Below, one piece after another: positions 1 to 39,666 of a stretch of 43,982 nucleotides of DNA; positions within the stretch are counted from its first letter, which is position 1, and each line of letters starts with the position of its first letter. Made by a program: the position numbers and the translations under genes. The notes beneath the pieces are model-generated. The model searched no databases and had not been told where the DNA came from. It worked only from the letters and a program-made list of their open reading frames with translations. Source of the stretch: a virus; UHGV virus genome UHGV-0179801; one strand, given 5' to 3'.

Positions 1-31
1 TCCACGAACTTAGAGACATCAAGCGCGAAAC

Positions 32-391
32 TCATTTTCTCACCTGAATAAAGTAGGCTACGACATCATCGTTAACCATCTTCTTCTCAATGGCTTCGAT
101 GGACCATTGCTCGCCGCCGAATTGCACCTTGTCTTCCATCTTCGGAACGACGCTGCAATCGGCTTTAACAATCATGTCGCCCGCCTGAATCGTCGTACCG
201 TTTACCAGTCCCGCGTTTACCGGAACCGGAACAGCCTTCAACGGCAGCACTTCATCGTCAGACCAGACGTACTCGCCGAGAACTTCATCCCACACTTTCG
301 AGCCAGCGCGAATCAGCGACACCGTGCTGCCGAATTTGGTCAGCAGGCGTGTACCAACACCTTGCATACGTTTACTGAAAGCTGTACCCAT
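32..391 (-). CDS. neck/structural protein, hypothetical (119 aa)
   Basis: Track ORF 32..445; in-frame ATG at 391 overlaps the stop of the upstream gene (TAATG coupling); last gene of the leftward late operon at the window edge. Confidence 0.45.
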   Translation of the reverse strand: MGTAFSKRMQGVGTRLLTKFGSTVSLIRAGSKVWDEVLGEYVWSDDEVLPLKAVPVPVNAGLVNGTTIQAGDMIVKADCSVVPKMEDKVQFGGEQWSIEAIEKKMVNDDVVAYFIQVRK

Positions 392-1005
392 TACGCGGCC
401 TCCAGTCTCGAAATAACCAGTAGCGCGGAAGGCGCGGCGCCCCATGCGGTTACGGTAGCGGCTTGCGGGTATACACCACCGAAGTTGCTTCCGGCGCTAT
501 CTCGCATAATCTGAACGGCAAACGTCTGGCCTGCGGTTGGGTTAATAACGACGCGAGACTCAATCGGGATTGTAATATCCGCGCTCACCAGTTTCGTGGC
601 GGCGGGCGAGCCGTACTGAGTACCGTTTACTAAAATACGTGATAGCAAGATTGATGTGCCACTTGCCCCTGTGCGACCCGCTTGTAACTTGATGCGAACG
701 GCGTAGTTACCCGCAGTGTTGAACGTAACCATACCCGCTGCATTAATCATTACCGGGTCAGATGCACTCCCCTGAGCGGAGCCGAAAGTTAACTGCAATG
801 CTGTGTCCGTCGCGGTTGGCGCTTGTATTACAGTGGACGCGGCGCGAAGAACTTCAACCTCTTTTACCCCAGGAGTGGCGTAAATAGGCGAGTCGGCCAT
901 CTGCGTCATTACCTCGCGTAACTTCGCGGGTGTGATAAGCCCGGTCGTGTTATCAGGGAGGTTCGCACCGATAAGGGTAAACATCTCTGTTTTAGTCTTC
1001 GCCAT
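391..1005 (-). CDS. structural protein, hypothetical (204 aa)
   Basis: Track ORF; tightly packed in the leftward late operon downstream of capsid genes; function assigned by position only. Confidence 0.5.
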   Translation of the reverse strand: MAKTKTEMFTLIGANLPDNTTGLITPAKLREVMTQMADSPIYATPGVKEVEVLRAASTVIQAPTATDTALQLTFGSAQGSASDPVMINAAGMVTFNTAGNYAVRIKLQAGRTGASGTSILLSRILVNGTQYGSPAATKLVSADITIPIESRVVINPTAGQTFAVQIMRDSAGSNFGGVYPQAATVTAWGAAPSALLVISRLEAA

Positions 1006-1007
1006 TT

Positions 1008-1520
1008 TTAACCCCGGTACACGTTAAACGAGAAACCATTGTTAAGACCGCCGCACAGTAACGGGCGTAAGGCGTCGTCTGCGGCTGTAATAGCAGTTGT
1101 TGCTCCACTGCTGCCGTTGTTGAAGTAGGTAACGGTCACTGCACCCTCGACACGCTCGGTCTGCACGGAACGCCCATCAGTGTTAGCGCGAACATCAGTT
1201 CCAGCACCATATGTAGCGGCGGCGATTACCTGCGCAAGAATCACCTGTTTCGGGATGACATTGTTCGATACTGGGAAGCCATTCAACGTTACGCCGGCGC
1301 GTGGGTAAGCGAGAGACTGTTCAGCGGATACGCGACGACCGCACATCTGCGGTTCTGCAAGCCCGACATAAGTAGCACCGTTGCGCAGAGCTACTTCCGC
1401 GGCGGTATCGTCTTCTGGCAACTCCAGGCCATAATTAGCCGCTAACGCGCGGGCGTCAGCCAGACTAATGTAACTGTCGGCATTCGGTACGATTTCCCCT
1501 GTCTCCACGATTAGCGGCAT
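1008..1520 (-). CDS. head-tail connector region protein, hypothetical (170 aa)
   Basis: Track ORF; 2-nt spacing to the next gene; position between capsid and tail genes. Confidence 0.5.
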   Translation of the reverse strand: MPLIVETGEIVPNADSYISLADARALAANYGLELPEDDTAAEVALRNGATYVGLAEPQMCGRRVSAEQSLAYPRAGVTLNGFPVSNNVIPKQVILAQVIAAATYGAGTDVRANTDGRSVQTERVEGAVTVTYFNNGSSGATTAITAADDALRPLLCGGLNNGFSFNVYRG

Positions 1521-1523
1521 AAA

Positions 1524-1703
1524 TTATTCCTCTGACTTACGGCGACGACGCTTAGTACCGCCACCGTTGTTGTGCGCTTCTTCGTTGTCCGGTTGTGTTG
1601 CAACCAGTTCTTCCGCTTCTACCGCACCGCGAACAGGCATCACCTGACCGTCAACAACATCAACGTGGGTGTACTTTTCGCGGATTACATAATTATCTGC
1701 CAT
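1524..1703 (-). CDS. small protein (59 aa), basic C-terminus
   Basis: Not in track (<60 aa). ATG at 1703 preceded by AAGGAAAGG; ends GGAGGAATAA just before the ATG of the next gene at 1520. Confidence 0.4.
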   Translation of the reverse strand: MADNYVIREKYTHVDVVDGQVMPVRGAVEAEELVATQPDNEEAHNNGGGTKRRRRKSEE

Positions 1704-1739
1704 GACCTTTCCTTATTACGGCCCCGAAGGGCCGTTGTA

Positions 1740-2081
1740 TTAAGATACAGTTGCTACGGTGCTGCTGGAGATAATATTACCATACACATCGTGAACAACC
1801 ACTTTATACGTGCCTGAATCGGCGGTAGTGGTAGACGCTTTAGCATAGGTAGCTGCGGTAGCTCCGTCGATGGCGTTGTTGTTCTTATACCACTGGTAAG
1901 AATATGGCTCCAGACCGCCAGTTGCGACCACGGTCAGCGTCATAGTTTCACCTGCGGTTACCGAGGTAGTAGCGTTAAGCGGGGTAGAAAAAGACGCAGG
2001 TGAAATAGTCGCCATGTCAATCTTAGCACCTACGGTGTCCGCAGAGACGCCAGTGATGCGTCGTTTCAATACGTCTGCCAT
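1740..2081 (-). CDS. Ig-like domain protein (possible capsid decoration)
   Basis: Track ORF; AAGAGGA RBS; Ig-like signature (PYSYQWYKNN ... DSGTYKVVVHD); immediately downstream of the major capsid gene. Confidence 0.5.
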   Translation of the reverse strand: MADVLKRRITGVSADTVGAKIDMATISPASFSTPLNATTSVTAGETMTLTVVATGGLEPYSYQWYKNNNAIDGATAATYAKASTTTADSGTYKVVVHDVYGNIISSSTVATVS

Positions 2082-2142
2082 TGGGGAATCCTCTTAGTAA
2101 ATGAAAAGAGGGACCGAAGTCCCTCTCGATTATAGCTTAACC

Positions 2143-3192
2143 TTAAGACCCGACACCAGTTACCAGGAAGGCAATCGGTACATGCTTACGTTCAACAACA
2201 CGGTTCCAGTTAGAGGCGTTCGCCAGGTCCTGCCAGGAAGCGGAGCGCGGGGTAGTCTCGGTGCCGTTGCCAGTGATTACTGCGCTGGTGAAGCTGTAGC
2301 CAAACGGATGCAGCAACCAGGTCTTACGGGTCCACAGGGTTTCAACGCCGCCGCCATTGCCGCGGGACTCTTCACGCTCATAGGCCAGCGGATTGGTTGG
2401 GTTGCCTTCACCATAACCGATAGCGCCGTTGCCGAAGATGATGGAGATGAACTTACGGCTAGGGCCAGTACCGACTACGGTCATGCTGTCGTCAACAATC
2501 ACGCGGTAGCCCTGGTAGGTGGCGAACAGGGTGTCGTTGTCAGCGTTTTTGATGAAGTCGATAAGCTGCTGCTTACGGGCCTGCGCGTATACGAAGCTGT
2601 GCATAGCGATAGTGCCCAGCACTTCACCACCGTTGCCCATCAGCGCGTCACCCATAGTCTGGGTAGCGTCGATGAACGCGCCTGCGTCGAAGCCCAGAGT
2701 AGAGGACACGTCGATTACCATGTCGTTCTGCTCGTGATATGCGTCGGTGGCGGCTACGTTGTCATTGTACAGACCGAGCGCGGTGGCGATCAGACGGCGT
2801 TGTGCCTGGCGCTGCCAGAAGTTATCCAGGCGGGATGCTACGGATTGCAGCGGGTTCTGGCTGGTCAGTTCTACCGTCAAATCCGCCTGACCAAAGCCTT
2901 CGTTCAGGTACGCAACGCGGGCCATCATCTCACCGGTCTGCACATTACGCGGGGTAGCGATGTCCTGGTATACGTCGTTCGAGTAGTTCGGCTCGATAGA
3001 GGTATCAATCGCTTTCCAGAAAGGAATATTAGCGATGTTGGACGGGCCGCGGGCAATCTCGGCAGCGTACGGAGTCGGAGTCAGAATACCGGACTGGAAG
3101 AACGCGGTTTTTTCTACCGGGTCCTCGGTCATATAAGATGCCAGGACCGGGATGTTGCCAGTTACGATATCGCCGATAGTGGTAATTGCCAT
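2143..3192 (-). CDS. major capsid protein
   Basis: 349-aa ORF directly after the scaffold gene; AGGAA RBS; size and position typical of an HK97-fold capsid protein. Confidence 0.7.
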   Translation of the reverse strand: MAITTIGDIVTGNIPVLASYMTEDPVEKTAFFQSGILTPTPYAAEIARGPSNIANIPFWKAIDTSIEPNYSNDVYQDIATPRNVQTGEMMARVAYLNEGFGQADLTVELTSQNPLQSVASRLDNFWQRQAQRRLIATALGLYNDNVAATDAYHEQNDMVIDVSSTLGFDAGAFIDATQTMGDALMGNGGEVLGTIAMHSFVYAQARKQQLIDFIKNADNDTLFATYQGYRVIVDDSMTVVGTGPSRKFISIIFGNGAIGYGEGNPTNPLAYEREESRGNGGGVETLWTRKTWLLHPFGYSFTSAVITGNGTETTPRSASWQDLANASNWNRVVERKHVPIAFLVTGVGS

Positions 3193-3194
3193 TA

Positions 3195-3896
3195 TTATTT
3201 CCTCAGGGCTTTAAGTTGCCGTTCAAATTCGGCAGGGTTCGATTTATACAGAGCTAAACGCTCCGCTTCACTCATGTCTTTAAACGCTGGTGCGGCCCCG
3301 CCGCCTTTGCTACCGGAAGCCCCGCCGCCGGAAGCTGCATTTGCTTTAATCAAATGCGAAAACGCTTTGTGTTCACGCAGATATTTGCGGAACTGTTCCG
3401 GGTCAGTCGTGATTACGTTACCGTCTGCGCTGACAAACTTAGTAACCACATCATCGCCTTCGAACTCAGTCTTAACGAACGGTGCAAGGATGTCCACTGC
3501 TTCCGGGGTGATAAAGTCACCTGCGAAAGAGCCTAACACCGCTTTACGTTCGCTACCGAGAATGCGCTCTGCCATTCTGGAGATGCGGCCATCTTTCTCG
3601 GCTAACACCGGGTCATACTGGCTACGAATCGTCTTTTCGAACTCGTCCATCTTACCAGCGGCTTTTAACGCCTCCTGGTGGGCACGCTGCCGTTCTTCTT
3701 CGGCCTCTTTTGCTTTACGAGCGGCTTCTTTCTTCTCCGCAAGTAATGCTTCCTGATTAGCCTTAAGCCCGGCAACTTCTTTCTCAATCAGCGCCTGAAC
3801 TTCTTCAGCGGTGAACATTTTCGGTGCGTCACCGCCGCCAGATTTATCTTCTGCTCCAGCTTCTTCCTGGAACGGATAACGTAAAAAACGATTCAT
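3195..3896 (-). CDS. scaffolding protein
   Basis: Ala/Glu/Lys-rich predicted coiled coil (EALLAEKKEAARKAKEAEEERQRAHQEALKAAGK) just upstream of the capsid gene. Start uncertain: ATG at 3896 chosen; track start 3950 is a TTG. Confidence 0.6.
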   Translation of the reverse strand: MNRFLRYPFQEEAGAEDKSGGGDAPKMFTAEEVQALIEKEVAGLKANQEALLAEKKEAARKAKEAEEERQRAHQEALKAAGKMDEFEKTIRSQYDPVLAEKDGRISRMAERILGSERKAVLGSFAGDFITPEAVDILAPFVKTEFEGDDVVTKFVSADGNVITTDPEQFRKYLREHKAFSHLIKANAASGGGASGSKGGGAAPAFKDMSEAERLALYKSNPAEFERQLKALRK

Positions 3897-3978
3897 AGTC
3901 AGTATGTCCCCTGGACGTTGGAATCCGGGCCACCCGGATTTACATGTCAAGAATAAATTATTCCAACATGCAAGGCAA

Positions 3979-4242
3979 CTATTCCAGAATATTCCTCACA
4001 TAATCCTGCAACATGAACACTTTCAGTCTCAGTTGCCGTGCACATTCGGCATTCTGAACGTCGATAGCTAAATCCTCGTCCGCGTCGCTACTTGGCGGCG
4101 CCAGTTTGCACGGCGGCTGCATCATCGTCATATCCGGGGATGGAATTAGCGTTTGCGACGGCGCGGGACTTGAGCAGGACGCGAGCATCGTCGAAAGTGC
4201 ACACGCTGCGGCCAGGCGTTTTAATGTACTTAACGACTTCAC
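3979..4242 (-). CDS. o-spanin (Rz1-like outer-membrane lipoprotein)
   Basis: Signal peptide with lipobox LASC then a Pro-rich mature region; begins in the +1 frame inside the Rz-like gene and extends past its stop (overlapped spanin architecture). Confidence 0.55.
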   Translation of the reverse strand: MKSLSTLKRLAAACALSTMLASCSSPAPSQTLIPSPDMTMMQPPCKLAPPSSDADEDLAIDVQNAECARQLRLKVFMLQDYVRNILE

Positions 4243-4474
4243 GGGTAATCACCTCTGATTTCGTCTTGCCTTCGTTGTCAGCGGCTGCGGCCTTTGATTC
4301 ATCCTGCTGCTGCCGTTGTGTTTTCTTTGCTAACTCGGTCTGTGCTTTCTGCTGTTGCTGCGAAACGAGATTCGCCCGGCCTTCGTTCCAGCCGCTGCGA
4401 TATTGGTAGATGCCGTGGGCGTAAGACAGGATGATGAAACATGCTCCTGCTACGACAGTTGCTTTAAGATTCAT
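4088..4474 (-). CDS. i-spanin (Rz-like)
   Basis: N-terminal TM helix (ATVVAGACFIILSYAHGIY) followed by a charged Gln/Lys/Glu-rich periplasmic coiled-coil region; AAAGGAGAAAC RBS; contains the embedded lipoprotein ORF. Confidence 0.55.
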   Translation of the reverse strand: MNLKATVVAGACFIILSYAHGIYQYRSGWNEGRANLVSQQQQKAQTELAKKTQRQQQDESKAAAADNEGKTKSEVITREVVKYIKTPGRSVCTFDDARVLLKSRAVANANSIPGYDDDAAAVQTGAAK

Positions 4475-4793
4475 GTTTCTCCTTTCTCGATAAGTAAAGC
4501 CCCGCCATAAAGCGGGGCGCTAGTCCTTATCATTTAAACATAGAAACGGCGTAATCTCAGTAAACCAGTTACTTTTTACACAAGCAATAGATTATGGCCC
4601 TTCCGAACGCGTCAGCGTAACTACACTCAGGACTTACGTCCCGCTCCGTTACCTGCCCGCGCCGCGGTCGCTTGTTCATACTTCACAAGCTCAGGTGGAG
4701 CTTAGCACATTTTTAGTGAAAAGTCAACTATTCGAATAGTTTATTCCAAGATTTACAATTCGGTGGAATAACTGGGATACCTAACCAAATAGT

Positions 4794-4822
4794 TTGCACA
4801 CACCAATATAATAGGGTACTAT
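4794..4822 (+). promoter_or_regulatory. sigma70-like promoter TTGCAC-N17-TACTAT with AATAG-N4-CTATT inverted repeat
   Basis: Conserved 25-nt block caccaatataatagggtactattca (4801-4825), near-identical at 6608 and 40231, followed by the conserved leader tcgaaacgaggaga and an ATG. Confidence 0.55.
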
Positions 4823-4850
4823 TCATTACATCGAAACGAGGAGATGAAAA

Positions 4851-5024
4851 ATGTTCAAAGAAAAAGACATAATGCACGAAAACGGCAAATACTGGGTTCT
4901 AAATGATAAAGGAGTGTACTGCGTAATGATTTCCGGGTTTACCCACGCTAAAGCTGATAGTGCATACGCTAGTTTAGATTTAGCGATAGCCCGCTGTGAT
5001 TATCTGGCGAGTAGAGACGCATAA
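4851..5024 (+). CDS. small moron protein (57 aa), hypothetical
   Basis: ATG 4851 after the conserved promoter/leader (gaggagatgaaaaATG); opposite strand to the flanking late genes; followed by a terminator hairpin. Confidence 0.5.
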   Translation: MFKEKDIMHENGKYWVLNDKGVYCVMISGFTHAKADSAYASLDLAIARCDYLASRDA

Positions 5025-5027
5025 ACT

Positions 5028-5050
5028 AAGGCCCCGTAATGGGGCCTTTT
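5028..5050 (+). terminator. rho-independent terminator (AAGGCCCC-gtaat-GGGGCCTT-TT)
   Basis: Perfect 8-bp GC-rich stem, 5-nt loop, T-run; member of a conserved hairpin family recurring at 7183, 30767 and 42010. Confidence 0.6.
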
Positions 5051-5051
5051 A

Positions 5052-5510
5052 TCAATCTGGCTTAGTGACCTTCGCCGCCTTGCTTACCACCTCAACTCCA
5101 TCGGTATCAGTAACTTTAACGAAGTATTCGCCAGCTGCGTTAACCGACAGAGACAAAGCCTGTTCTGGTGCGTTAACCACTTCCTTACCGTCCTTGTACC
5201 AGGTCAGAGTATACGGCGCTTTACCCGCTTTAACTTCGACAGTGATAGTTGCGCTGCCGTCTGCCAGTTCGGCGTCCTGCGGTTGCACAGAGAAATACAC
5301 ATCGCCAGCATCAGCCAGATACGGAATCTCATAAAGCATACCCGCCGCCGGCAGCGCAATACCGGTTTTATCTGCAAACGGCATATCGTCTACGGGCGTA
5401 CCGAGTACACTTTCATCTTCAATAAATACCACGTTCTCGCCGGAGCCAGACACGCGGGCGTACTGGACTACGCGACGCGCGGGTACATCAGTTACTTTGA
5501 AAAAGCCCAT
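5052..5510 (-). CDS. Ig-like domain structural protein
   Basis: Track ORF; GGGGA RBS; C-terminal Ig-like signature (APYTLTWYKDGKEV ... GEYFVKVTD); downstream of the head morphogenesis gene. Confidence 0.5.
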   Translation of the reverse strand: MGFFKVTDVPARRVVQYARVSGSGENVVFIEDESVLGTPVDDMPFADKTGIALPAAGMLYEIPYLADAGDVYFSVQPQDAELADGSATITVEVKAGKAPYTLTWYKDGKEVVNAPEQALSLSVNAAGEYFVKVTDTDGVEVVSKAAKVTKPD

Positions 5511-5512
5511 CG

Positions 5513-6556
5513 TTATTCCCCTTTCAGATAATCAGCAACACGTTTATCGAGTTCCGCCATCTGCTTAAGCGTCAGCGGATTCCCGAAACCATCTACAGAT
5601 ATTACGCGAAACTCTTCCGGTGATATACCGCTGTTACGGAAAATCTTACCGCGTGTCGGCCCGAGTGCTTCATCCTGAAACCATGCCGGTTGTTGTTTCA
5701 GGAACTCGTAATAGGTTGTGTCCGCGCTTACCTGAGTTCCTCCGTCTGCACCCTTAGCCGCACGTTTTGCGCCTTTATCGAGGAAGTCGAACTCCGAGCT
5801 AATTACCGGAGCCGTGCACGACCGGCAGTTCGGATGGGCGGGGGGCATCGGCCCTTTACCAATTTCCCACGTCATCCCGTCTCTGGCTCTGCAAATCGTA
5901 CTTGTACGGCTGTCGAGGGTGGATACCCACTCGTACTTCTCGATGATGTCGTCGTTCTGACGGTACGTCTCGTTACGTGCTTCGTTGGACACGTGGGACA
6001 GCGCGGTGCGTATTACAGTAGCCGCATTGCGCTCAGAGACATCGGCCAGGCCACCCGCGCCAACAACATTCTTAACAATCTGCCGTGTGGTTTGGCCTTG
6101 TACAAATCCCATCTTAACGCCCGTTACCAGGCGCGCGACCTCCGCTTCGCCCCAGCCATCCATCAGCTTGGTGAAATCGACAGGCTTGTCACTTAGTGAC
6201 AGAGGTTGAAACTCGGCAGCGGCCCACACCTGCTCAGCGGTAGGAGTAATAAATTCTGCGTTAACATTGGTCGTCAGTGTTTTTACGTTCCACTCAGCCT
6301 CATATGCCGCCAGTTCCTTAAGGTCTTCTGTCAGCTTTGTTTGCCAGTCACCTGTAAGGCCTGCCAGTGCTTCTTCGAGGTCGCGTAACAGTTTATTCAG
6401 TCTGGCGGTGCTGCGACCGTCGTCGCCGAATAACAGCACCTGCCGTTTTATTTCGTCACGCATCTCCTGAATGAACGGTGTGAGGTCTTTCACCTCGCCG
6501 GATGCGGTGCGTTGCAGCCATATCTGGTGGCTGATTAAGGATGTAAGTAAGCTCAT
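5513..6556 (-). CDS. head morphogenesis / minor capsid protein (Mu F-like, SPP1 gp7-like)
   Basis: Motif STLDSRTSTICRARDG typical of the Mu-F/gp7 family; located after the portal gene; ATG 6556 with GGAGGG RBS preferred over the track start 6613. Confidence 0.65.
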   Translation of the reverse strand: MSLLTSLISHQIWLQRTASGEVKDLTPFIQEMRDEIKRQVLLFGDDGRSTARLNKLLRDLEEALAGLTGDWQTKLTEDLKELAAYEAEWNVKTLTTNVNAEFITPTAEQVWAAAEFQPLSLSDKPVDFTKLMDGWGEAEVARLVTGVKMGFVQGQTTRQIVKNVVGAGGLADVSERNAATVIRTALSHVSNEARNETYRQNDDIIEKYEWVSTLDSRTSTICRARDGMTWEIGKGPMPPAHPNCRSCTAPVISSEFDFLDKGAKRAAKGADGGTQVSADTTYYEFLKQQPAWFQDEALGPTRGKIFRNSGISPEEFRVISVDGFGNPLTLKQMAELDKRVADYLKGE

Positions 6557-6600
6557 ATGCCCTCCTGTAGTATCGACAGTGTAACGCATAAAAATAATAT

Positions 6601-13618: not shown

Positions 13619-14125
13619 TCAACCTTTCACCGCGCGCCCAATAGCCTCAGCCTCTTGCCACGATTTACCGTCGAACAGCGCCAGACGTCCGGCAACACGT
13701 CGGCGTAGGCCAAGCACAGGCTCAAGTTTACCGGTTTTCGGGTTACGCTGGTTGATGAACTGACTCATCTTGTGCCGTAAGGTAGGGATGTCTCCCTGCC
13801 GTAGTGCCTTACCGGTACCGGTCGTCGCCGCGATAACACCAGTTCCGGCGTTAAACACCAGGTCGACAACGGCATCAAACTGAGCCTGGGTCAGTGAGGG
13901 ATGTGCGACTTCATCAACTGCTTTCACCGCCCACTGCATATCGCGGTTCAGTAACAGCAGCCCCTGGCCCTCGGTAATCTTCTGCCCTTCATACACATCC
14001 GGCCCGGTATGACCCCAGCCTATAGTCCAGTATTTCTCGTTCTTTGTGGCTTTGTATGCAGTTCCGCGAAACTTCTCCCACGCTTTCTTGAACTGCAACC
14101 CATTATCTGAAATGTTTCGAGACAC
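13619..14125 (-). CDS. endolysin, phage lysozyme (GH24-like)
   Basis: Lysozyme signature AWEKFRGTAYKATKNEKYWTIGWGHTG; GTG 14125 with GGAGG RBS chosen; alternative ATG at 14176 (track) lacks an RBS. Confidence 0.65.
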   Translation of the reverse strand: MSRNISDNGLQFKKAWEKFRGTAYKATKNEKYWTIGWGHTGPDVYEGQKITEGQGLLLLNRDMQWAVKAVDEVAHPSLTQAQFDAVVDLVFNAGTGVIAATTGTGKALRQGDIPTLRHKMSQFINQRNPKTGKLEPVLGLRRRVAGRLALFDGKSWQEAEAIGRAVKG

Positions 14126-14375
14126 GCTTATGTCCTCCGTATGACAGCCACGCCTGGCGAATTTGACGCAGCGCAACTAATGTGATTAACGTCTCGGGCA
14201 ACGTCGGCGACATGCTGCCCTGTAACAGGTGGATGCATCCGGCGGCGCAGACGATAGCGGTCAGGATATAGAGCACCCGGCCAAATATCCCGTCGTCCAC
14301 ACTCGGATGATACACATTAAACAGCGATGTGCCTCCGATTGCCAGCATACCGCCGAACCAGAATAACTCATTCAT
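14103..14375 (-). CDS. holin/antiholin-like membrane protein (90 aa)
   Basis: Internal ATG 14375 of track ORF 14103..14555, GGAGG RBS, overlaps the stop of the upstream membrane protein (ATGA); two hydrophobic helices. Confidence 0.5.
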   Translation of the reverse strand: MNELFWFGGMLAIGGTSLFNVYHPSVDDGIFGRVLYILTAIVCAAGCIHLLQGSMSPTLPETLITLVALRQIRQAWLSYGGHKRVSKHFR

Positions 14376-14676
14376 CCGGGCCTCCTCGACGTGCAATGTA
14401 TTCTCCGGCGACGATGCCAGAAAGGCGGGAATAAATAGGCATCCAGAGAACGGCAATGATAAAGCCCAGGCCCGCGATTTCACGGTCGCCCGTGATGCCG
14501 AACCATTGAGCCGCGAGAGGTGCGCCAAATACGGCGCAGGTGAAGCCGGTTGCAATAAAGCAGAATCCGTCGATAGGGCCAGAAATAACGGACTTATGTT
14601 GCCTTAGTCCGATGACCCCACCGGCGAGTGCGGCAGCGAGAAGCCAGCCTGTCACTGTTTCAGTAAATTTATCCAA
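14368..14676 (-). CDS. holin-like membrane protein (102 aa)
   Basis: Multi-TM small protein immediately upstream of the second membrane protein and endolysin; TTG start with GGAGG RBS. Confidence 0.5.
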   Translation of the reverse strand: MDKFTETVTGWLLAAALAGGVIGLRQHKSVISGPIDGFCFIATGFTCAVFGAPLAAQWFGITGDREIAGLGFIIAVLWMPIYSRLSGIVAGEYIARRGGPDE

Positions 14677-14735
14677 GATGAATCCTCCAGGTGCGTATTA
14701 AGTATGCAGTAACTGGAGGATACCACGGGTAGGAA

Positions 14736-15173
14736 TTATCCTAATAGTTGTTTGGTAATAATCTTGCCACCTGTGTTAGCGTCAAACTTCGATGCAACGG
14801 CTACACCGCCATGTGCTGAATACCCACATTCCATAGCCGCGAGTGCATAAGGAGAACCGGAACCAACGGCAGCAAAGCTATCAGCAATCGGAATAACCGA
14901 ACTAAGAGCACAATCCCATGATTTACAGAACTCCACCTTACACAACGTTTCGATGTCTCTAACCCACACCAAAGCAGAGAAATCAAAATCGTAGTGTTTA
15001 GGCACTAAAATACTATCGTCCTTCACTAAAAGGATACCAACTCCAGCGTCACCCGCTACACCGATAACAACAAACTCGTTCTCGTATATCTTAGTGTCAG
15101 TGTTGTATATATGACTTCCCGATACACGCGTGTCACACGCCATTGTCTTTCCGTCAAACGCGATAGTAGTCAT
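14736..15173 (-). CDS. HslV/proteasome beta-subunit-like Ntn hydrolase (compact, 145 aa)
   Basis: N-terminus MTTIAFDGKTMACDTRVS (Thr directly after Met, as in proteasome beta TTIAGV...ADTRAT), DTK, GVAGDAGVG, and AVGSGSPYALAA (GSG motif); ATGA-coupled to the upstream gene. Confidence 0.6.
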   Translation of the reverse strand: MTTIAFDGKTMACDTRVSGSHIYNTDTKIYENEFVVIGVAGDAGVGILLVKDDSILVPKHYDFDFSALVWVRDIETLCKVEFCKSWDCALSSVIPIADSFAAVGSGSPYALAAMECGYSAHGGVAVASKFDANTGGKIITKQLLG

Positions 15174-15463
15174 TTGTGTCTCCAGATGTATTGTCGTCTC
15201 TGCGGTTTCGTCGGAATACCCTCGTATCCCAGAGATTTCCAGTAGTTAAATAGCCGATTAGCGATTGCTGCGCGTTCCTTTGTCTTGAACTCACCGAGAT
15301 TCACGGCCTTACCGTTCTGGAATCCACAGGCGCGGACAGCTTTGCGTCGGGCCTGAATCTCTGGGTACAGCGCATTACGGCGGCGCTTGTATATCCGTGT
15401 TTTAGCTCTCGGTGCCAGCGGCGCAAGGCCGCTTCGTTTCAGGATGTCAGTTGCAAGAGACAT
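15170..15463 (-). CDS. basic hypothetical protein (97 aa)
   Basis: Internal ATG 15463 of track ORF with GGGAGGGGTGGAG RBS; Arg/Lys-rich. Confidence 0.45.
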   Translation of the reverse strand: MSLATDILKRSGLAPLAPRAKTRIYKRRRNALYPEIQARRKAVRACGFQNGKAVNLGEFKTKERAAIANRLFNYWKSLGYEGIPTKPQRRQYIWRHK

Positions 15464-25202: not shown

Positions 25203-25361
25203 ATGATGTTTTTCTGTAAGCACGTTTATCGCTATATGAAACCGCTTCCGTGGTACGCGGATGAGTACCGGGCCGGGTACGGGCATGTGTGGATTTGCCG
25301 TGATTGTATGAAAATAAGACTCAGCGAAACGAAGGCACTGGATTTAAGGAAAAAGAAATGA
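25203..25361 (+). CDS. small Cys/His protein (52 aa, zinc-ribbon-like)
   Basis: Not in track; ATG 25203 after AAGGGTCGAAA; CKH...CRDC; its stop overlaps the polymerase ATG (ATGA). Confidence 0.35.
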   Translation: MMFFCKHVYRYMKPLPWYADEYRAGYGHVWICRDCMKIRLSETKALDLRKKK

Positions 25362-27559
25362 GCTATTTATACCTGGACTTTGAAACATTCTCCGAGGCCG
25401 ATTTGAAGAAAGTCGGTTCCTACGCTTACGCCGAACACCCAACCACAGAAGTGCTTATCTGTACCTATGCTTTTGACGACGAGCCTGTGCAGGTATGGGA
25501 TTGCACCGACGGCAGCGACATGCCAGGTGATTTACACCGCGCGTTACGCCGTCTGGTGAAGCTGAACAGCCACATTAAGATGGTGTGGCATAACGGCTCA
25601 ATGTTCGATCGCCTCATCATGAAACACTGCTGGGGTTTTGATATTCCGGTAAGCAACACCATTGATACGATGATTTGGGCGTTTCGTCACGCGCTGCCGG
25701 GTTCTCTTGATGCGTTGTGCGAAGTGCTTGGCGTATCTGCTGACAACGCGAAAGACAAACGAGGCAAGGCGCTGATTCAGCGTTTTTCTAAACCGACACC
25801 GAAGAACTACAAAATCCGCCGTTACACCGCAGAAACACACCCGGACGAGTGGGCGTTGTTCATCAAGTACGCTGTGAGTGACATCACCGCGATGCGCGAA
25901 GTATTCCATAAGCTGCCGCGTTGGGGTAACTCAGAGTTTGAAGACCGTGTACTGGAACTGGACCAGCTAATCAACGACCGCGGGTTTAAGGTTGACGTCG
26001 CACTGGCAGAAGCCGCGATTGAAGCCGTGGAGAAACACAAGGCACAGTTACAGGAAGAAGCCCAACGTAAATACGGCGGCTCGCTTACCGGAAATGACTT
26101 CCTTCCGATTCTGCGTGAACTCGCACCGGCGCACCGTATTCACAACGCGCAGAAGTCTACACTTAACGACCTGCTGGCGGACGATGATTTACCTGACGAC
26201 GCCCGGACGATTATCGAAATGCGCCTCGGGGCGGCGTCTACTGCGTCAACGAAATATAACCCGCTGCTGTTGGGTCGCTCGTCTGACGACCGTCGTCGCG
26301 GTTGCTTGCAGTACGGTGGGGCGAAACGTACTCTGCGATGGGCAGGTAAAGGCTTCCAGCCGCAGAACCTGGCACGCGGTTACTATCACGATGATGAGCT
26401 GGATAAAGGCATTTCGGCGTTACTTAAGGGCCGCGCCCATCGCCGTTTCGATGTAGCCAAGCTAACGGCATCGACGGTTCGTAGTTGCATCATACCGGAA
26501 GCCGGGCACAAGTTTGTCGTAGCTGATTACTCTAACGTCGAAGGTCGGGGGCTTGCGTGGTTGGCTGGTGAAGAAACCGCGCTCGATACCTTCCGCGCCG
26601 GGTTGGATATTTACTGCGTAACCGCGGGCAAGATGTTCGGCATGGACCCTGATGACATTAAGAAAAACTTCAAGGAAATCAGACAGATAGGCAAGGCATG
26701 CGAACTTGGCCTCGGCTACGAGGGGGGCGTAGGTGCTTTCGTTACGTTTGCTAAAAACTTAGGTCTTGACCTTATTGAGATGGCAAAAACAATGGACGGG
26801 ACTTTCCCCGACCACATCTGGGCTGCTACCGCACGTGGGTATGAGTGGGCGCGTATACAAGAAGCAAAGCGCCCTCCACATCCAGGTGAAAAGGATGACA
26901 GACCATCGTATATTCTGGACAAGAAAGTGTGGCGCACATGCGATGCGATCAAGCGTATGTGGCGCGAGTCACACCCGGAAACAGTAGCGTTCTGGCGCGA
27001 CCTTAAAGACGGAATCTTAGCCGCTGTTCGTAATCCTGGACGTGAATTTTGGGCGGGGGCACACTTGCGCAGGAATGGGGAAAGGGCGATCCGCATATGG
27101 CGTAATGTAGAATTTGATTCGTCCGGTAGGAAGGTTCCGGGTTGGTGGTTGTGTGTGGAGTTGCCGTCAGGCCGTATCCTCTCGTATCCGGGAATTGGGG
27201 TTAGTGTGACAAAGGAAACAGACGAGGACGGACGGGTGAACACGAATGTGCGAATCAAGTATCAAGGCGAAAACCAGTTAACCCGCCAATGGACCACCCT
27301 GTACACACACGGCGGCAAAGCCTGTGAAAACATTGTCCAGGCGCTGTGCCGTGATTTACTCGCATATGCGATGATTAATGTTGAGGGCGGCGGGTACCCC
27401 ATCGTGCTTTCGGTACACGATGAACTGGTATGTGAAACTCCAGATACAGCGGATTACACGGTACATGATCTGGAAAAATTAATGTGCGCGTTGCCTAAGT
27501 GGGCAGAAGGCTTCCCTCTTGTAGCGGAAGGTCAGGAGTTAAAACGCTATGCTAAGTAA
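25358..27559 (+). CDS. DNA polymerase, family A, with 3'-5' exonuclease domain
   Basis: Exo I LDFETFS; polymerase motif A DYSNVEGRGLAWLAGE; motif B RQIGKACELGLGYEGG; motif C SVHDELV. ATG 25358 preferred over track start 25304. Confidence 0.85.
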   Translation: MSYLYLDFETFSEADLKKVGSYAYAEHPTTEVLICTYAFDDEPVQVWDCTDGSDMPGDLHRALRRLVKLNSHIKMVWHNGSMFDRLIMKHCWGFDIPVSNTIDTMIWAFRHALPGSLDALCEVLGVSADNAKDKRGKALIQRFSKPTPKNYKIRRYTAETHPDEWALFIKYAVSDITAMREVFHKLPRWGNSEFEDRVLELDQLINDRGFKVDVALAEAAIEAVEKHKAQLQEEAQRKYGGSLTGNDFLPILRELAPAHRIHNAQKSTLNDLLADDDLPDDARTIIEMRLGAASTASTKYNPLLLGRSSDDRRRGCLQYGGAKRTLRWAGKGFQPQNLARGYYHDDELDKGISALLKGRAHRRFDVAKLTASTVRSCIIPEAGHKFVVADYSNVEGRGLAWLAGEETALDTFRAGLDIYCVTAGKMFGMDPDDIKKNFKEIRQIGKACELGLGYEGGVGAFVTFAKNLGLDLIEMAKTMDGTFPDHIWAATARGYEWARIQEAKRPPHPGEKDDRPSYILDKKVWRTCDAIKRMWRESHPETVAFWRDLKDGILAAVRNPGREFWAGAHLRRNGERAIRIWRNVEFDSSGRKVPGWWLCVELPSGRILSYPGIGVSVTKETDEDGRVNTNVRIKYQGENQLTRQWTTLYTHGGKACENIVQALCRDLLAYAMINVEGGGYPIVLSVHDELVCETPDTADYTVHDLEKLMCALPKWAEGFPLVAEGQELKRYAK

Positions 27560-28078: not shown

Positions 28079-28270
28079 ATGAAATACGAATATGACCGTA
28101 AACCAGCACGTGACATCGTACCTGGCGACATGATTTTCAATGTTAAGACCCGCCGTCCTGTTGCCGTTGATACGGTGTACGTAGAGTCGAACGGTAAACT
28201 GGTTATCGAAGATGTAACCGGTAATATTACGGCGTTTGGGCGTAAAGAGTTAGTTCTGGTGGCGAAATGA
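28079..28270 (+). CDS. hypothetical protein (63 aa)
   Basis: Track ORF; AAGGAATTGAGAA RBS; ATGA coupling to the methyltransferase gene. Confidence 0.45.
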   Translation: MKYEYDRKPARDIVPGDMIFNVKTRRPVAVDTVYVESNGKLVIEDVTGNITAFGRKELVLVAK

Positions 28271-29211
28271 ACTATTACAATGAATGGGATAAAGGCGCTG
28301 CCGCGTGGCTGCGTGAATTAATAAAACAGGGGCACATACCTTTTGGAGTTGTAGATGAAAGAAGTATTACCGAAGTTAAGCCAGAAGACCTCGACGGATT
28401 CACCCAGTGTCATTTTTTCGCTGGTATCGGCGGCTGGCCTCTCGCGCTCAGACTTGCGGGAGTTCCGGAAGATGCGCCTCTCTGGACGGGAAGCCCGCCT
28501 TGCCAACCGTTTAGCGCGGCGGGAAAGCAACTTGGACAGTTCGACCCGAGACACCTCGCGCCAGTCTTCCTCGACCTCATCAGCGAGTGCCGCCCTCCAG
28601 TCCTCTTTGGGGAACAGGTTGCGCCAGCAATTGCAAAATCGTGGATGTGCGATTTACAAACTCATCTGGAAGGAGAAGACTACGCCGTCGGGTTTGCTGT
28701 ACTCCCAGCTTGTAGCGTCGGCGCACCGCACAAAAGAGAACGACTCTTCTTTGGTGCGCACGAATTGGCCTACACCGACAGCGAACGACTACAAGGGGAG
28801 TGGAGAGACAGTGATTCGCAAGGACGGGAAGGACAGAACATTCGACAGGCTGGACTACTCAACGGAGCAGGGGCTGAAACTGACGAGTTGGCCTACTCCT
28901 CGCAGTGCGGACGGAGAAAAGAACGTGAGAACATTAGAGGGGTCGCTATCAGAGATTCGGAGGAAGGGTGGGCCTCAGGACGTAGCGCAAGCTGCTGCAA
29001 TAACACAGCCAATCCGCATCACGGCTTCTGGTCAGACGCTGACTGGCTTGGATGCAGGGACGGAAAGTTCAGGCCAGTTGAATCCGGCACATTCCCGCTG
29101 GCTAATGGGATACCCGCCAGAGTGGGACGATTGCGCGGTTACGGCAATGCCATCGTCCCGCAAGTAGCCGCTGAATTTATAAAGGCGTTCATGGGGGCTG
29201 TAAATGAGTAA
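28267..29211 (+). CDS. DNA (cytosine-5)-methyltransferase, reading frame apparently disrupted
   Basis: Frame 1: motif I FFAGIGGW (28411-28437), motif IV GSPPCQPFSAAGKQ (PCQ), motif VIII PHKRERLFFG, motif X GYGNAIVPQ (29137-29163). Frame 2 (track ORF 28355..29167): NWPTPTANDYKG, SWPTPRSADGEK and motif IX RWLMGYPPEW (29099-29125). Confidence 0.6.
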   Translation: MNYYNEWDKGAAAWLRELIKQGHIPFGVVDERSITEVKPEDLDGFTQCHFFAGIGGWPLALRLAGVPEDAPLWTGSPPCQPFSAAGKQLGQFDPRHLAPVFLDLISECRPPVLFGEQVAPAIAKSWMCDLQTHLEGEDYAVGFAVLPACSVGAPHKRERLFFGAHELAYTDSERLQGEWRDSDSQGREGQNIRQAGLLNGAGAETDELAYSSQCGRRKERENIRGVAIRDSEEGWASGRSASCCNNTANPHHGFWSDADWLGCRDGKFRPVESGTFPLANGIPARVGRLRGYGNAIVPQVAAEFIKAFMGAVNE

Positions 29212-32997: not shown

Positions 32998-35553
32998 TTA
33001 ATAAAAACCGTTGCTGAATCCGTCGGAGAAACCGCGACCTAAAGGCGCGACGCCGTCGTATTTGTAGAATCCGTCGTCATAGTTGTAACCAGTAATCTTG
33101 ACCGTGCGGTCGTCGCCCGGGTCGATTGAAGAAACAACTATCTTCTGAGCATTATGCCTTGCTTCGTTGCCGAATGAAAACTCAGTTTTTAGTGCGCTAT
33201 TCCCCGTGTAGATTGCTTCCTCCGGCGCGGAGAGCATAATCACCTCGCGGTCATGGCTTCCTTTGATAACAGAGATACTCTGCACCGAGCCGTCGCGCTT
33301 CTTGAGGATGATGGAGTGGTCGTCTCCAGGGGTAAACGTAACAGGCTGAGACAACGTCAGGGTAAGCCCATTAACAGCAACGACATAGCCGTCCTGGGGC
33401 GCAATACGCGAACCTTTAACCACGCTGATTACACCACCTGGGGTAGCAAGAGCGCCTTCTTCCGTAGCTTCGAATTCTACGACAACTTTACTTAACGCGT
33501 TGCGCTGATAGCGACGCCACGCCAGCCAATATGCCTGTTGGTAGTTACGCACGCCCTTTGATTCGTATTCCTCCGTATTTGCGCCCAGTTCTTCCGGGAT
33601 ATAAATCGTTTCCTGTACGTTAGTATCCGGGTCGATGTATGAGAATGACAAGCTATCGTAGGTTGTCGAATCGTTGAACGTGCGCGTCCATTTCTCGGTA
33701 CCGGTAGTTTTGCTGCGGTGGGTGAACACCATTTCAGGCCCCGCGACAGGACGGTCGAATCGCAGCATAATATCTGCGCCTTTACGGTACGCAGTACAGA
33801 ACACGGCTTCCGCTATGGTCTGGACTATGTCCTGCATCGTGGTATCGTAGTCGTCGAACGTATAGCAGAATTGTCCGGCTAATTCGCTGCCAAAATAGGA
33901 CTCAATTTCTTCCTGCACAGCGAGTAACTTATCCATATTTGCCGTTGTCAGTTCCAGATTACCCACCGCCGGGTCTCGAGCCAGTCTGATTAGTGACTGC
34001 ACCGCCTGTGTATTAGGCGTCATTACCGTATCAAATACCCCATTGCCTAAGTATTTGTAGCACATCTCGGTCGCAATCATGCGCAGTTCCGGGTTGTCGA
34101 TACTGGCGGCACGCGGTGTCTGTTTACGGGCACAATGTACGGTAGTTCGGTTTCCGTAATGCGGGGTAGTGTCCAGTGACTGACCGTACAGGTTGATGAA
34201 CGTTATTTCGTCGCTTACCGTTCCGTCGTAGTCCTTGTCGAAATTAGTTATACGGCGCATACGGGCGCGGAAACGAGATGCGGTCGGAAACTGCCCGTAG
34301 ATAGACGTACCGACGTAATCCGTATTATTGCCTGTAATTGTGGCCTGTACCGTGTAAATGTCGCTCAAAGGGTTGCGTTGAGAGTCAATCATCTGGTACT
34401 GGAGTTCTACGGTTACGCTGGTGCGGTTATAGCCGCCGTCGTATTTGTAGAGGCCATTCTGCCCCGCGACGTTAGCAAGCACACGGTCAACCTCTCCGCG
34501 CACCATGTAGTACCAGTCTGTCAGGGATACATCATAGGTGTTGCTCGGGCCGATAAACGTATCTGAACGCTCTGTTAGGGTGTACGTCTGTCCGCTGGTC
34601 AACGCCGCCCAGTTAGACGCACCGTTTACAGCTAATCTTACTTCGAAGTCGTCAACGTATAAAACCTCAAACGAGCCGTTCAGGTTAGTGACGTCCTTAA
34701 CGTCAAAGTTGCTCAGCACCGCGATATCGCCAACGCTAAGAAACTCAGAAAAAGCAGAGTCGCCCGACGGGTCATAGATGTAGCCGGTGGTTGAAATACG
34801 TTTGGCGGTGCCACCGGCGCTTGGGTTAGCCCCAATGTCGTTGGGTGCTTTCAGTACAATACCGTCAACGTCGTCGTTGGAGTATGTTACATAAAGTTTC
34901 TGGTCAATTACGTCGCCGATTTGTAGTTGCGGTGAAGTGGTGTTGTTAGGTGATGTATACGGCGCATACACGGCAACAGAGGAGCCTGTGATGTCGCTTA
35001 TCAGGGTGTCACCCTCGGTTACACCATCCGCCTCAATATGCAGATGCCCGCGCCCTGCGTCGTAGTACGAATACTCCAGCAAAGCACCAGTGGAGTTGAA
35101 CGCCTTATACGTCTGCATAAGGTCGTTGGGGATTGTCTGCACAGTCCCGCAGATGTCATAAGAGCGCTCGTAAGGACGCGGCTTGTTGGAGCGGTCTGTT
35201 AGGCTGTTATTCGGTGACGTTGTCTGGTTGTTAGTCGCCGTGTAGTTGGCGTTGGCGGCCGTGTTCAGGCCAAACAACTTGGCGATTGGCTTAAGGATAA
35301 AACCAAACACCTTACTAACCGCACCGAGCGCCCCGCTACCCGCGCCCTCAATAATGTGGTACACGGCATCTTCGTCTTTAAGCGCATCGAAGTCGTCCGT
35401 TACGTCTGTATCATCGCCAATCTCGCCGAGGTAGACGCGCACCGGCACGCCGTCCGGGATACGGTTAACGACAAACTCCATCGGCATCCCGACGTGTTTT
35501 GTACGGTCGAAAACGCCATCAGCGTTCCGCGTGTAGTGCAGGATTATCGCCAA
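32998..35553 (-). CDS. tail tip / central fibre protein (lambda J-like)
   Basis: 851 aa, downstream of the minor tail proteins; assigned by size and gene order. Confidence 0.65.
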   Translation of the reverse strand: MAIILHYTRNADGVFDRTKHVGMPMEFVVNRIPDGVPVRVYLGEIGDDTDVTDDFDALKDEDAVYHIIEGAGSGALGAVSKVFGFILKPIAKLFGLNTAANANYTATNNQTTSPNNSLTDRSNKPRPYERSYDICGTVQTIPNDLMQTYKAFNSTGALLEYSYYDAGRGHLHIEADGVTEGDTLISDITGSSVAVYAPYTSPNNTTSPQLQIGDVIDQKLYVTYSNDDVDGIVLKAPNDIGANPSAGGTAKRISTTGYIYDPSGDSAFSEFLSVGDIAVLSNFDVKDVTNLNGSFEVLYVDDFEVRLAVNGASNWAALTSGQTYTLTERSDTFIGPSNTYDVSLTDWYYMVRGEVDRVLANVAGQNGLYKYDGGYNRTSVTVELQYQMIDSQRNPLSDIYTVQATITGNNTDYVGTSIYGQFPTASRFRARMRRITNFDKDYDGTVSDEITFINLYGQSLDTTPHYGNRTTVHCARKQTPRAASIDNPELRMIATEMCYKYLGNGVFDTVMTPNTQAVQSLIRLARDPAVGNLELTTANMDKLLAVQEEIESYFGSELAGQFCYTFDDYDTTMQDIVQTIAEAVFCTAYRKGADIMLRFDRPVAGPEMVFTHRSKTTGTEKWTRTFNDSTTYDSLSFSYIDPDTNVQETIYIPEELGANTEEYESKGVRNYQQAYWLAWRRYQRNALSKVVVEFEATEEGALATPGGVISVVKGSRIAPQDGYVVAVNGLTLTLSQPVTFTPGDDHSIILKKRDGSVQSISVIKGSHDREVIMLSAPEEAIYTGNSALKTEFSFGNEARHNAQKIVVSSIDPGDDRTVKITGYNYDDGFYKYDGVAPLGRGFSDGFSNGFY

Positions 35554-35909
35554 AATTCAATCTCCGTGTACGTGTCTCTGAGGTCTGCCAGCCTGTCAAG
35601 CCGTACCTGACGTGACGCAAGTTCACAATGACTCACCATCCCGTCGAAGTAAACTCCTGCGTGCCACACGATACGGCCCCCGCGGCGATACCCCATAAGC
35701 ACCGCACAAAAGTTTTCAGGCTTATCAATTTTTGTAAGCCCCTTCGTGTCACGGTGGCCTTCGTCAAACGCTTCGTTAATTGCCGTTGGGCTTGTAACGT
35801 CGAACGCCGGGGTTTCTAACCCGGCATCCGCGCGGACAATGCGCACATGGTGCCAGCAATTACGTTTGCGAAAGTCGTAAGGTATTCCCGTGTAGTCGTT
35901 AATATTCAT
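35544..35909 (-). CDS. tail assembly protein (lambda K-like, possible peptidase fold)
   Basis: 121 aa with Cys/His (RNCWHHV ... GMVSHCE); ATGA coupling; position between L-like and J-like genes. Confidence 0.4.
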   Translation of the reverse strand: MNINDYTGIPYDFRKRNCWHHVRIVRADAGLETPAFDVTSPTAINEAFDEGHRDTKGLTKIDKPENFCAVLMGYRRGGRIVWHAGVYFDGMVSHCELASRQVRLDRLADLRDTYTEIEFWR

Positions 35910-36421
35910 GTGGTCAACAGGCCGCGCAATAACGGTATCTCTTTAGGTGTCATCAGTATACCAGTGCTCCGTTGGTTCAGCATAGGTGTACCGACATCCG
36001 CAGAGAACTCGCCTTTCTCCTGGTTGATAGCCTGTAACTCGTACACGACCGGGCCGTCAGCCGGATAAGACAGGTCGGTGCTGACATACCGGCGGAATAC
36101 GAACTTCGGCAACTCAGTGTTACTCATCGGGATTTTATCCATCTCATCATCAAGTTGATTGAGAATATCCGGTAAAGTAAATGTTGTCGTCTGGTCCATA
36201 TCACTGTTGTTAGCAGCCCCTGACGCCTCCATCGGGGTTGGCTCGAATGTTATTGTTTCGCCCGTCTCCAGTGTTGCCGTAAGTTCCTGTAGCCCGCGCA
36301 CAAGATAGTACGTCTTCGACAGCAACGGGTGGCTGATTTGCAACGTGATGTAGTCCATCTCGCCGTCGGGGTTTGAGGCCAGCTTACGGCGATAGGCGGC
36401 TTCTACTGATTCCTGGCTCAT
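35906..36421 (-). CDS. minor tail protein (lambda L-like)
   Basis: Gene order after the tape measure and M-like genes; ATG 36421 ATGA-coupled (track start 36436 is a TTG). Confidence 0.5.
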   Translation of the reverse strand: MSQESVEAAYRRKLASNPDGEMDYITLQISHPLLSKTYYLVRGLQELTATLETGETITFEPTPMEASGAANNSDMDQTTTFTLPDILNQLDDEMDKIPMSNTELPKFVFRRYVSTDLSYPADGPVVYELQAINQEKGEFSADVGTPMLNQRSTGILMTPKEIPLLRGLLTT

Positions 36422-36918
36422 TGCATCGGGTCCCAAATTCGAGGAAACGTTGATTGCGCAGTTCCGTAGGCTTTAAGGAGGCACCCCAGCACATCACCAT
36501 AGCAACCATACAAATCTGGCAGATTGTTAACAAGGCACTGATTATCTTCGTCCTGAAACGGCGATTTCTCGGCGGTTGCCGTGAAAGTAATCGTCCAGTT
36601 AATACCGTCTTCGGTGGCCTCGGCGATGGTGGATGTGATCGTTACCTGATAGTCCTCAATACCCATGCCGAAGTCGTGCGCCATCCAGAAACTTGACGCA
36701 CCGCCATCGACTTTCTCAAGGAACGACAGGAACGCCTGCCGCCCTAGTGCAGATGTAATCAGGGTTACGCTTATCGGAAACACGTCGTAATATGTGTCAC
36801 GGCCCTGACGCACCCCGCCACCGGCTAAATCGACACTCCAGACGTTGTTACGTCTGGTCATTGAGTAGCCTTTTGACACCACCGGCTTAAGGCTACGTGG
36901 AAAGTATAAGTCAGTCAT
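36418..36918 (-). CDS. minor tail protein (lambda M-like / distal tail)
   Basis: ATG overlaps the tape measure stop (TAATG); assigned by gene order. Confidence 0.5.
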   Translation of the reverse strand: MTDLYFPRSLKPVVSKGYSMTRRNNVWSVDLAGGGVRQGRDTYYDVFPISVTLITSALGRQAFLSFLEKVDGGASSFWMAHDFGMGIEDYQVTITSTIAEATEDGINWTITFTATAEKSPFQDEDNQCLVNNLPDLYGCYGDVLGCLLKAYGTAQSTFPRIWDPMQ

Positions 36919-39341: not shown

Positions 39342-39666
39342 GATTTCTACCTTCAAAGATTGCTTCTAAGCCCATGATAATGTCTATCTCGAACAGGCTA
39401 AGCTGTTTTTGCGTAACATCGAGATAGGCTTTCAGGTCTTGCCACGTAACGGATTCTCTTGCAAACAATACTACAGCGTCCTCGCGCACGTGTCGCGTAA
39501 ACTTAATGTCACAGTACGTCTCAAAGGTGGATATAAAAAGGGGCGGGCATTCTAGCCCACCCCGTCGCGCTGCACGTTTTTTCTTATCGATTACACCCAT
39601 CGCGATAAGCGCCTGTTCGTGTCCGTCAGCTATAGAATCAAACTCTCTGATTTTATGCTTGTCCAC
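39334..39666 (-). CDS. tail assembly chaperone, T-like frame (likely made as a G-T fusion)
   Basis: ORF in the -1 frame relative to the upstream chaperone; its frame stays open back to 39723, overlapping the last 8 codons of the G-like gene. Confidence 0.45.
   Translation of the reverse strand: MDKHKIREFDSIADGHEQALIAMGVIDKKKRAARRGGLECPPLFISTFETYCDIKFTRHVREDAVVLFARESVTWQDLKAYLDVTQKQLSLFEIDIIMGLEAIFEGRNHG

Follow-up and report, generated by a model that had tools for sequence, protein, structure and literature searches.

The PPH family was published in 2021 by Fuchs et al. (PMC8665760) as proteasome-like proteins of about 140 residues from Caudovirales and also from their hosts, where the genes belong mostly to prophages. 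PPH belongs to group I of the proteasome homologs together with HslV and the Betaproteobacteria proteasome homolog (BPH), has no propeptide and, with its relative RPC, is unique in missing helix H2 (PMC8665760). BPH has been proposed to work without a dedicated unfoldase (PMC5777263), and connectase, an archaeal proteasome-like protein ligase, acts without rings or an unfoldase (PMC8665760).

The virus genome UHGV-0179801, analysed here as one stretch of 43,982 nucleotides (the window), carries a gene that compares closely with this family:

14736..15173, minus strand: PPH gene with an ATG start, encoding a predicted proteasome-beta/HslV-like N-terminal-threonine hydrolase of 145 residues

The translation opens MTTIAFDGKTMACDTR (MTTIAFDG). 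An initial annotation of this open reading frame (ORF), made from the DNA letters, had listed the motifs DTR, DTK, a GxAGDAG-type motif and GSGS; all of them are found on the translation (DTR at residues 14-16, DTK at 26-28, GVAGDAG at 38-44 and GSGS at 104-107), and the minus strand is added here. The ORF is a real gene rather than a chance reading frame, because orthologues occur in 299 phage records at 62-95% amino-acid identity (tblastn) and the ratio of non-synonymous to synonymous substitution rates (dN/dS) is 0.14 against the orthologue of phage Shashou. The gene is subject to purifying selection.

The protein is a member of PPH (published representative WP_042125023.1; KEGG OC.1434257), placed there by the published features of the family. 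It shares with PPH a length of about 140 residues in which both a propeptide and a C-terminal extension are absent (here 145 residues, with Thr right after Met1), a beta-sheet core with equivalents of Thr1, Asp17, Lys33 and Gly47, and the missing H2; in Guernseyvirinae, H1 is additionally shortened. Also shared are the encoding in tailed phages or prophages, the stand-alone state without an unfoldase and the lack of an assigned function. The novelty implied by the initial annotation does not survive this comparison: PPH was published in 2021, the family exists as PHROG 1040, and relatives are routinely annotated 'peptidase HslV family' in GenBank. Other GenBank labels of relatives are 'ATP-dependent protease', 'protease', 'NTN-hydrolase superfamily protein', 'lactocepin', 'head protein' and 'hypothetical protein'. 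The term 'ATP-dependent' is an over-annotation because these genomes contain no ATPase partner.

Family membership and predicted fold

The protein matches PHROG 1040 ('peptidase HslV family') over residues 1-142 with E = 4.8e-35. In a single-sequence search of the PDB, the matches were BPH, an archaeal beta subunit and HslV, with E-values of about 0.3-0.8; a family profile matched HslV at 1.2e-9, BPH at 5.9e-9 and proteasome beta5 at ~6e-7. A profile search over 1.84 billion cluster representatives returned 3759 matches with E <= 1e-3, of which 218 reach E <= 1e-10; the majority are 135-160 residues long and align from residue 1. A sister subgroup of PPH accounts for 312 viral-contig matches. 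Among 72 diverse members of the family, 46 individually match the Pfam Proteasome model (E <= 0.01; best 1.4e-10). With the NCBIfam equivalog models of HslV proper (TIGR03692 and NF003964), the phage protein stays far below the cutoffs, at 12.5 bits where 157.75 are required and 11.5 bits where 137 are.

The AlphaFold2 model built with a 129-sequence alignment is confident (predicted local distance difference test (pLDDT) 93.5; predicted template modelling score (pTM) 0.89), and a shallow alignment (29 sequences, 77-92% identity) gave an unusable model with pLDDT 35. The strand order in the confident model is that of a proteasome-type sandwich. Its only helices are a six-residue remnant of H1 (residues 45-50), H3 (107-115) and H4 (120-130), the last being followed by the final strand; H2 is absent, and alignments to HslV show gaps of at least 20 residues at the H2 position. 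The full alpha-beta-beta-alpha sandwich with both helix pairs (H1-H4), which marks HslV, is thus not seen in the model. The predicted PPH fold is a proteasome-type N-terminal nucleophile (Ntn) sandwich with one helical layer reduced. In Foldseek comparisons with the PDB, the top matches are Staphylococcus aureus HslV, Thiobacillus denitrificans BPH, ClpQ and beta5, at E-values of about 1e-7 to 1e-6 and query-normalised TM-scores of about 0.70-0.75. In the BFVD, 39 phage proteins share the PPH fold at E <= 1e-3. The closest viral predicted structure, BFVD A0A1W6DWU9, has 263 residues and matches over 131 columns only, at 59% identity; this entry may be a PPH fused to a neighbouring gene or the product of a mis-called start.

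HslV (ClpQ, peptidase family T1B) shares with the phage protein the catalytic residues, the MTTI N-terminus and the position as a group I proteasome homolog. The phage protein differs in being about 30 residues shorter, so that the earlier statement that its 145 residues fall short of HslV holds, and in its absent H2, its vestigial H1 and the lack of an hslU, whether adjoining or elsewhere among the window ORFs scanned. HslV itself is a dodecamer built from two hexameric rings and works with HslU, an AAA+ unfoldase whose gene accompanies its own. BPH (PDB 5ovs, 5ovu) has about 185-200 residues, four helices and a long acidic pore loop, against the 145 residues found here; it forms tetradecamers and is encoded on the chromosome in stress-regulated operons, whereas the phage protein was modelled here as a single chain. 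Connectase shares the loss of the first-pair helices, but PPH shows neither the two-helix lid between strands S3 and S4 that marks connectase nor a close structural similarity to it.

Predicted catalytic residues and the Guernseyvirinae branch

Residue counts at the predicted catalytic positions were taken from the alignment of 129 relatives at 28-92% identity. The codons concerned are the following:

15168..15170, minus strand: Thr2, codon ACT, predicted nucleophile (Thr1 after removal of Met1); Thr in 129/129
15132..15134, minus strand: Asp14, equivalent of proteasome Asp17; Asp in 128/129, aligned with the Asp of the HslV GDG motif
15090..15092, minus strand: Lys28, equivalent of proteasome Lys33; Lys in 129/129, aligned with the K33 region of HslV
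15051..15053, minus strand: Gly41, equivalent of the oxyanion-hole Gly47 (Gly45 in HslV); Gly in 129/129
14856..14864, minus strand: Gly104-Ser105-Gly106, the GSG motif (Ser129 in the proteasome, Ser124 in HslV); Gly in 129/129, Ser in 126/129 (Thr in the other 3), Gly in 129/129; aligned with AIGSG of HslV
14781..14783, minus strand: Asp131, probable equivalent of proteasome Asp166, judged from the order of helices and strands; Asp in 124/129

In a smaller alignment of 72 sequences that are 30-42% identical to the query, M1, T2, D14, K28, G41, G104, G106 and A110 are invariant, and S105, D131 and G135 are nearly so. Hidden Markov model alignments to HslV place the conserved PPH positions on Thr1, Asp17, Lys33, the oxyanion Gly and the GSG serine. 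Judged from these alignments, the predicted catalytic set of the proteasome is complete and essentially invariant across the PPH family. The threonine stands directly after Met1 in every one of the 129 sequences, an arrangement compatible with removal of Met1 by methionine aminopeptidase. Escherichia coli HslV also begins MTTI and has its Met removed by this enzyme, for which Thr at position two is permissive.

The initial annotation had proposed a proteasome-beta/HslV-like threonine Ntn hydrolase and had tied the proposal to profile hits and to a predicted Ntn fold. The identification is borne out by the PHROG 1040 and family-profile matches (the latter to HslV, BPH and beta5), by the conserved catalytic residues and by the predicted fold, which is of the proteasome type with the one reduced helical layer.

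Within the family, the Guernseyvirinae proteins form a divergent branch with about 30-40% identity to other members. All 13 of these sequences carry a deletion of 4-5 residues in H1, by which they lose a Trp that is kept in 115 of the 116 other aligned members. The hairpin segment from Pro58 to GSG is about 7 residues longer in this branch and contains a clade-invariant KSWDCALS motif with a conserved Cys.

The locus and its lysis-gene neighbours

The phages closest to this region by megablast are Kagunavirus (Guernseyvirinae) phages of E. coli, Salmonella Jerseyviruses being more distant. The window is essentially the nearly complete genome of a Kagunavirus-like E. coli siphophage, because a full siphophage gene set is present: genes for the terminase, portal, head morphogenesis protein, tape measure, tail spike and tail tube, and for a helicase-primase, an exonuclease, a DNA polymerase, a second helicase and a single-stranded-DNA-binding protein. 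PPH is among the last of a leftward series of small unassigned genes, which originates at a divergent control region at ~18.4 kb, beside a helix-turn-helix (HTH) gene and the helicase-primase gene on the opposite strand; after PPH come two holins and an endolysin. The features around the gene are:

15170..15463, minus strand: upstream gene, phrog_9632, function unassigned; its TGA overlaps the PPH ATG as ATGA (15170-15173)
15180..15183, minus strand: GGAG, Shine-Dalgarno sequence of PPH as read from the DNA, 6 nucleotides 5' of the ATG and inside the 3' end of the preceding gene
14677..14735, minus strand: spacer of 59 nucleotides from the PPH stop to the holin start, containing a 9-bp hairpin with arms 14713-14721 and 14682-14690
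14368..14676, minus strand: class I holin-like gene, phrog_2359, with a TTG start at 14676 and its own GGAGGA Shine-Dalgarno sequence (context)
14103..14375, minus strand: second holin-like gene, phrog_2508, whose profile match begins at Met 14375 (context)
13619..14122, minus strand: lysozyme-like endolysin, phrog_7 (context)

The initial annotation described PPH as translationally coupled within the block that ends with the holins and the endolysin. Coupling stands for the upstream gene, through the ATGA overlap and the GGAG, but not for the holin: PPH is co-oriented with the holin block yet uncoupled from it, because a 59-nucleotide spacer intervenes and the holin has its own GGAGGA at the TTG 14676. 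The hairpin in the spacer (fold energy -23.8 kcal/mol, z = -2.8) occupies the holin leader (14682-14721, minus strand) as a perfect 9-bp stem, AUCCUCCAG / CUGGAGGAU, and its 3' arm holds the holin Shine-Dalgarno sequence GGAGGA, with the TTG start just downstream. This hairpin could be a means of translational throttling of holin synthesis. Shashou and the PPH-less phage 26 have exactly the same spacer and hairpin sequence as the window; covariation is therefore uninformative.

In Escherichia phage 26 (Kagunavirus), positions 14747-15171 of the window are replaced by 7 nucleotides between flanks that are 92-93% identical. Phage 26 keeps an intact upstream gene, spacer, holin pair and endolysin, and the final ~10 nucleotides of the PPH ORF are left, which suggests a deletion. 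Across Kagunavirus-type records, PPH is found in ~37 and this holin (at least 80% identity) in ~112. PPH is dispensable for the neighbouring lysis cassette. In Salmonella phage Shelanagig (Jerseyvirus; locus L009, 2977-3013), an annotated terminator, made up of a GC-rich hairpin with a T-run behind it, lies between PPH and the holins. The same place in the Kagunavirus window is taken by the hairpin that sequesters the Shine-Dalgarno sequence, with no T-run, and Jerseyvirus and Kagunavirus may control holin expression differently.

The neighbourhoods of PPH elsewhere were surveyed in 85 loci from 57 PPH groups (60% identity) with all ORFs included; the top cluster was the antisense shadow ORF of PPH itself and was discarded. 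The commonest real neighbour family is the terminase large subunit, which occurs in 8 of the 57 groups, at variable distance and on either side, and no ATPase, holin or endolysin family is recurrent among the neighbours in these loci. PPH-encoding phages have no conserved neighbour gene. PPH stands among HTH and replication genes upstream of a terminase in one phage (L002), among nucleotide-metabolism and helicase genes in another (L003), after a primase-polymerase and before an integrase in a third (L004), and surrounded by unassigned genes in a fourth (L006). Overall, its surroundings in unrelated phages are early genes, replication genes or genes close to those for packaging. Four unrelated phages have, upstream of PPH, genes with no homology to the phrog_9632 gene or to each other, and the coupled upstream gene was rejected as a conserved partner.

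On the bacterial chromosome GCA_963795415.1 (L007, 7001-7447), a solitary PPH of 148 residues has ABC-transporter, pirin and cytochrome genes around it, and the 7 kb to its left and right are free of phage genes. In this it resembles the copies outside prophages that have been reported from the bacteria Mesorhizobium and Pseudoalteromonas. On the 42-kb contig IMGVR_UViG_3300047469_000099 (L018 and L025), PPH matches lie near both ends, in 33072-42035 and 1-6578, and represent either two copies or terminal redundancy or circular permutation of the assembly.

These observations argue that PPH is an optional accessory gene whose adjacency to the lysis genes is positional only, because PPH is deleted in phage 26, is separated from the holins by a terminator in Shelanagig and occupies different gene settings in unrelated phages. 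Neither co-inheritance with holin and endolysin nor lysis adjacency across lineages was found (phage 26; ~37 against ~112 records; unrelated phages). The functional link to lysis suggested by the initial annotation is accordingly not upheld: the gap to the holin is 59 nucleotides, PPH is precisely absent from phage 26 with the same cassette, and it is not lysis-adjacent in other phages.

Elsewhere in the window, a gene for a C-5 cytosine DNA methylase (28267-29211, plus strand; Pfam DNA_methylase, E = 2.8e-16) presumably serves restriction evasion. The DNA polymerase ORF (751 residues; 25304-27559, plus strand) contains an endonuclease match, phrog_93, at residues 463-556 between its polymerase matches, perhaps an insertion of the homing-endonuclease or intein type.

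Proposed function and its rivals

PPH is probably a minimal single-domain relative of HslV, BPH and the proteasome beta subunits, with an accessory role and an unassigned substrate. Its synthesis would take place in the cytoplasm, from the early or middle operon of small genes that runs leftward from the divergent control region near 18.4 kb, and host methionine aminopeptidase would strip Met1, as it does for E. coli HslV. The freed Thr1, through its amino group and hydroxyl, would then be both general base and nucleophile, together with Lys28 and Asp14, in proteasome-type hydrolysis of peptide bonds. As has been proposed for BPH, action would proceed without a dedicated unfoldase, and the targets may be peptides, unstructured or unfolded proteins, or one particular protein of the host or the phage. 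No AAA+, Clp or HslU-type protein was found among the larger window ORFs scanned, in agreement with the initial annotation, which had noted that an HslU partner is missing from the window. In beta subunits, H3 and H4 form the ring-ring contact (PMC8665760); both are retained in the PPH model, while the H1/H2 face, which meets the alpha ring or HslU in homologs, is largely gone. The role would be an accessory one in fitness under particular conditions, outside lysis, replication and head maturation, and a conditional advantage would fit the patchy distribution of PPH. A prohead protease was considered and rejected because close relatives are without the gene. CRISPRi-ART knock-down data for phage PTXU04 are uninformative, this being evidently a different kind of phage with 92 coding sequences that include a 2198-residue polyvalent protein.

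Several points weigh against this account. The protein scores 19.2 bits with Pfam Proteasome (PF00227), under the gathering threshold of 22.4; membership in the T1/Proteasome superfamily is supported despite this score by the family-profile and fold evidence. Because part of H1 and its Trp are deleted in Guernseyvirinae, these proteins could assemble or act differently from mainstream PPH. The timing of expression as early or middle is read from gene order only. That PPH directly precedes the holins in Kagunavirus as well as in Jerseyvirus leaves some room for a lysis-related accessory role. A literature search returned no paper giving an activity, a structure or a phenotype for any PPH; the paper on Salmonella phage JSS1 mentions only transcription of host hslV, and that on BME3 only lists the annotation.

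The order PPH, holin, holin, endolysin, kept in Kagunavirus and Jerseyvirus, would suit a protease that processes a holin, an antiholin, the endolysin or a host envelope factor and thereby tunes the timing of lysis, and a terminator scan of the window showed no obvious terminator between these four co-stranded genes. Such a role is nevertheless very unlikely, since PPH is cleanly missing beside the phage 26 cassette at ~92% nucleotide identity, occurs in only about a third of Kagunavirus-type records and is parted from the holins by an intrinsic terminator in Shelanagig; the holin has its own Shine-Dalgarno sequence after the 59-nucleotide gap, and in unrelated phages PPH is not lysis-adjacent and has no recurrent holin- or endolysin-like neighbour family. 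It is also doubtful, though less so, that PPH acts as an HslV mimic that hijacks host HslU, replacing or poisoning host HslV so that ATP-dependent proteolysis is blocked or takes another direction. In its favour, HslV gives the best sequence-profile match and belongs to the closest solved structures, the N-terminus MTTI is that of E. coli HslV, and the window ORFs scanned include no ATPase of the phage's own. The absent H2 and the six-residue H1, however, correspond to the apical face that contacts the neighbouring ring in the homologous beta subunit (PMC8665760), and their loss may affect HslU binding. Moreover, BPH, which has no unfoldase partner, is structurally as close or closer (PMC5777263), and the protein reaches 12.5 bits against the HslV equivalog cutoff of 157.75 bits.

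The reduced helical layer bears on two other readings. Connectase is the other proteasome homolog minus the first helix pair and is monomeric (PMC8665760), and the PPH studied here is without H2 and has a truncated H1 that has lost the near-invariant Trp of the family. PPH might then, rather than being a degradative ring protease, act as a monomer in the manner of connectase, as a sequence-specific transpeptidase or ligase or in site-specific processing; this is highly improbable. A different possibility, unlikely yet the best placed of those considered beside the preferred one, is that PPH is an early-deployed, unfoldase-independent 'mini-proteasome', or, with H2 and the H1 Trp lost, an open non-ring Thr protease, that destroys a specific host defence or stress factor. 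Destruction of a host protein would explain the patchy presence of PPH among near-identical phages, like that of other counter-defence genes; a scan against PADLOC models gave no match that would link the gene to a defence system. Least probable of all is that the gene is a decaying remnant or that its product is catalytically dead, with a structural or regulatory function instead. Dispensability in close relatives and the sub-threshold Pfam score would fit such a remnant, but the catalytic positions are retained across the 129 relatives, dN/dS is 0.14, and the model is confident and compact.

Within the proteasome family, PPH has been called the first branch that is truly viral, and no member has a known substrate, activity or quaternary structure. 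Because the family, its fold and its phage distribution have already been published and the gene is routinely annotated, the present case adds little as a discovery. The window does offer a PPH from a tractable E. coli phage with predicted catalytic residues intact, and the near-isogenic natural relatives without the gene provide a start in the search for a first PPH substrate.
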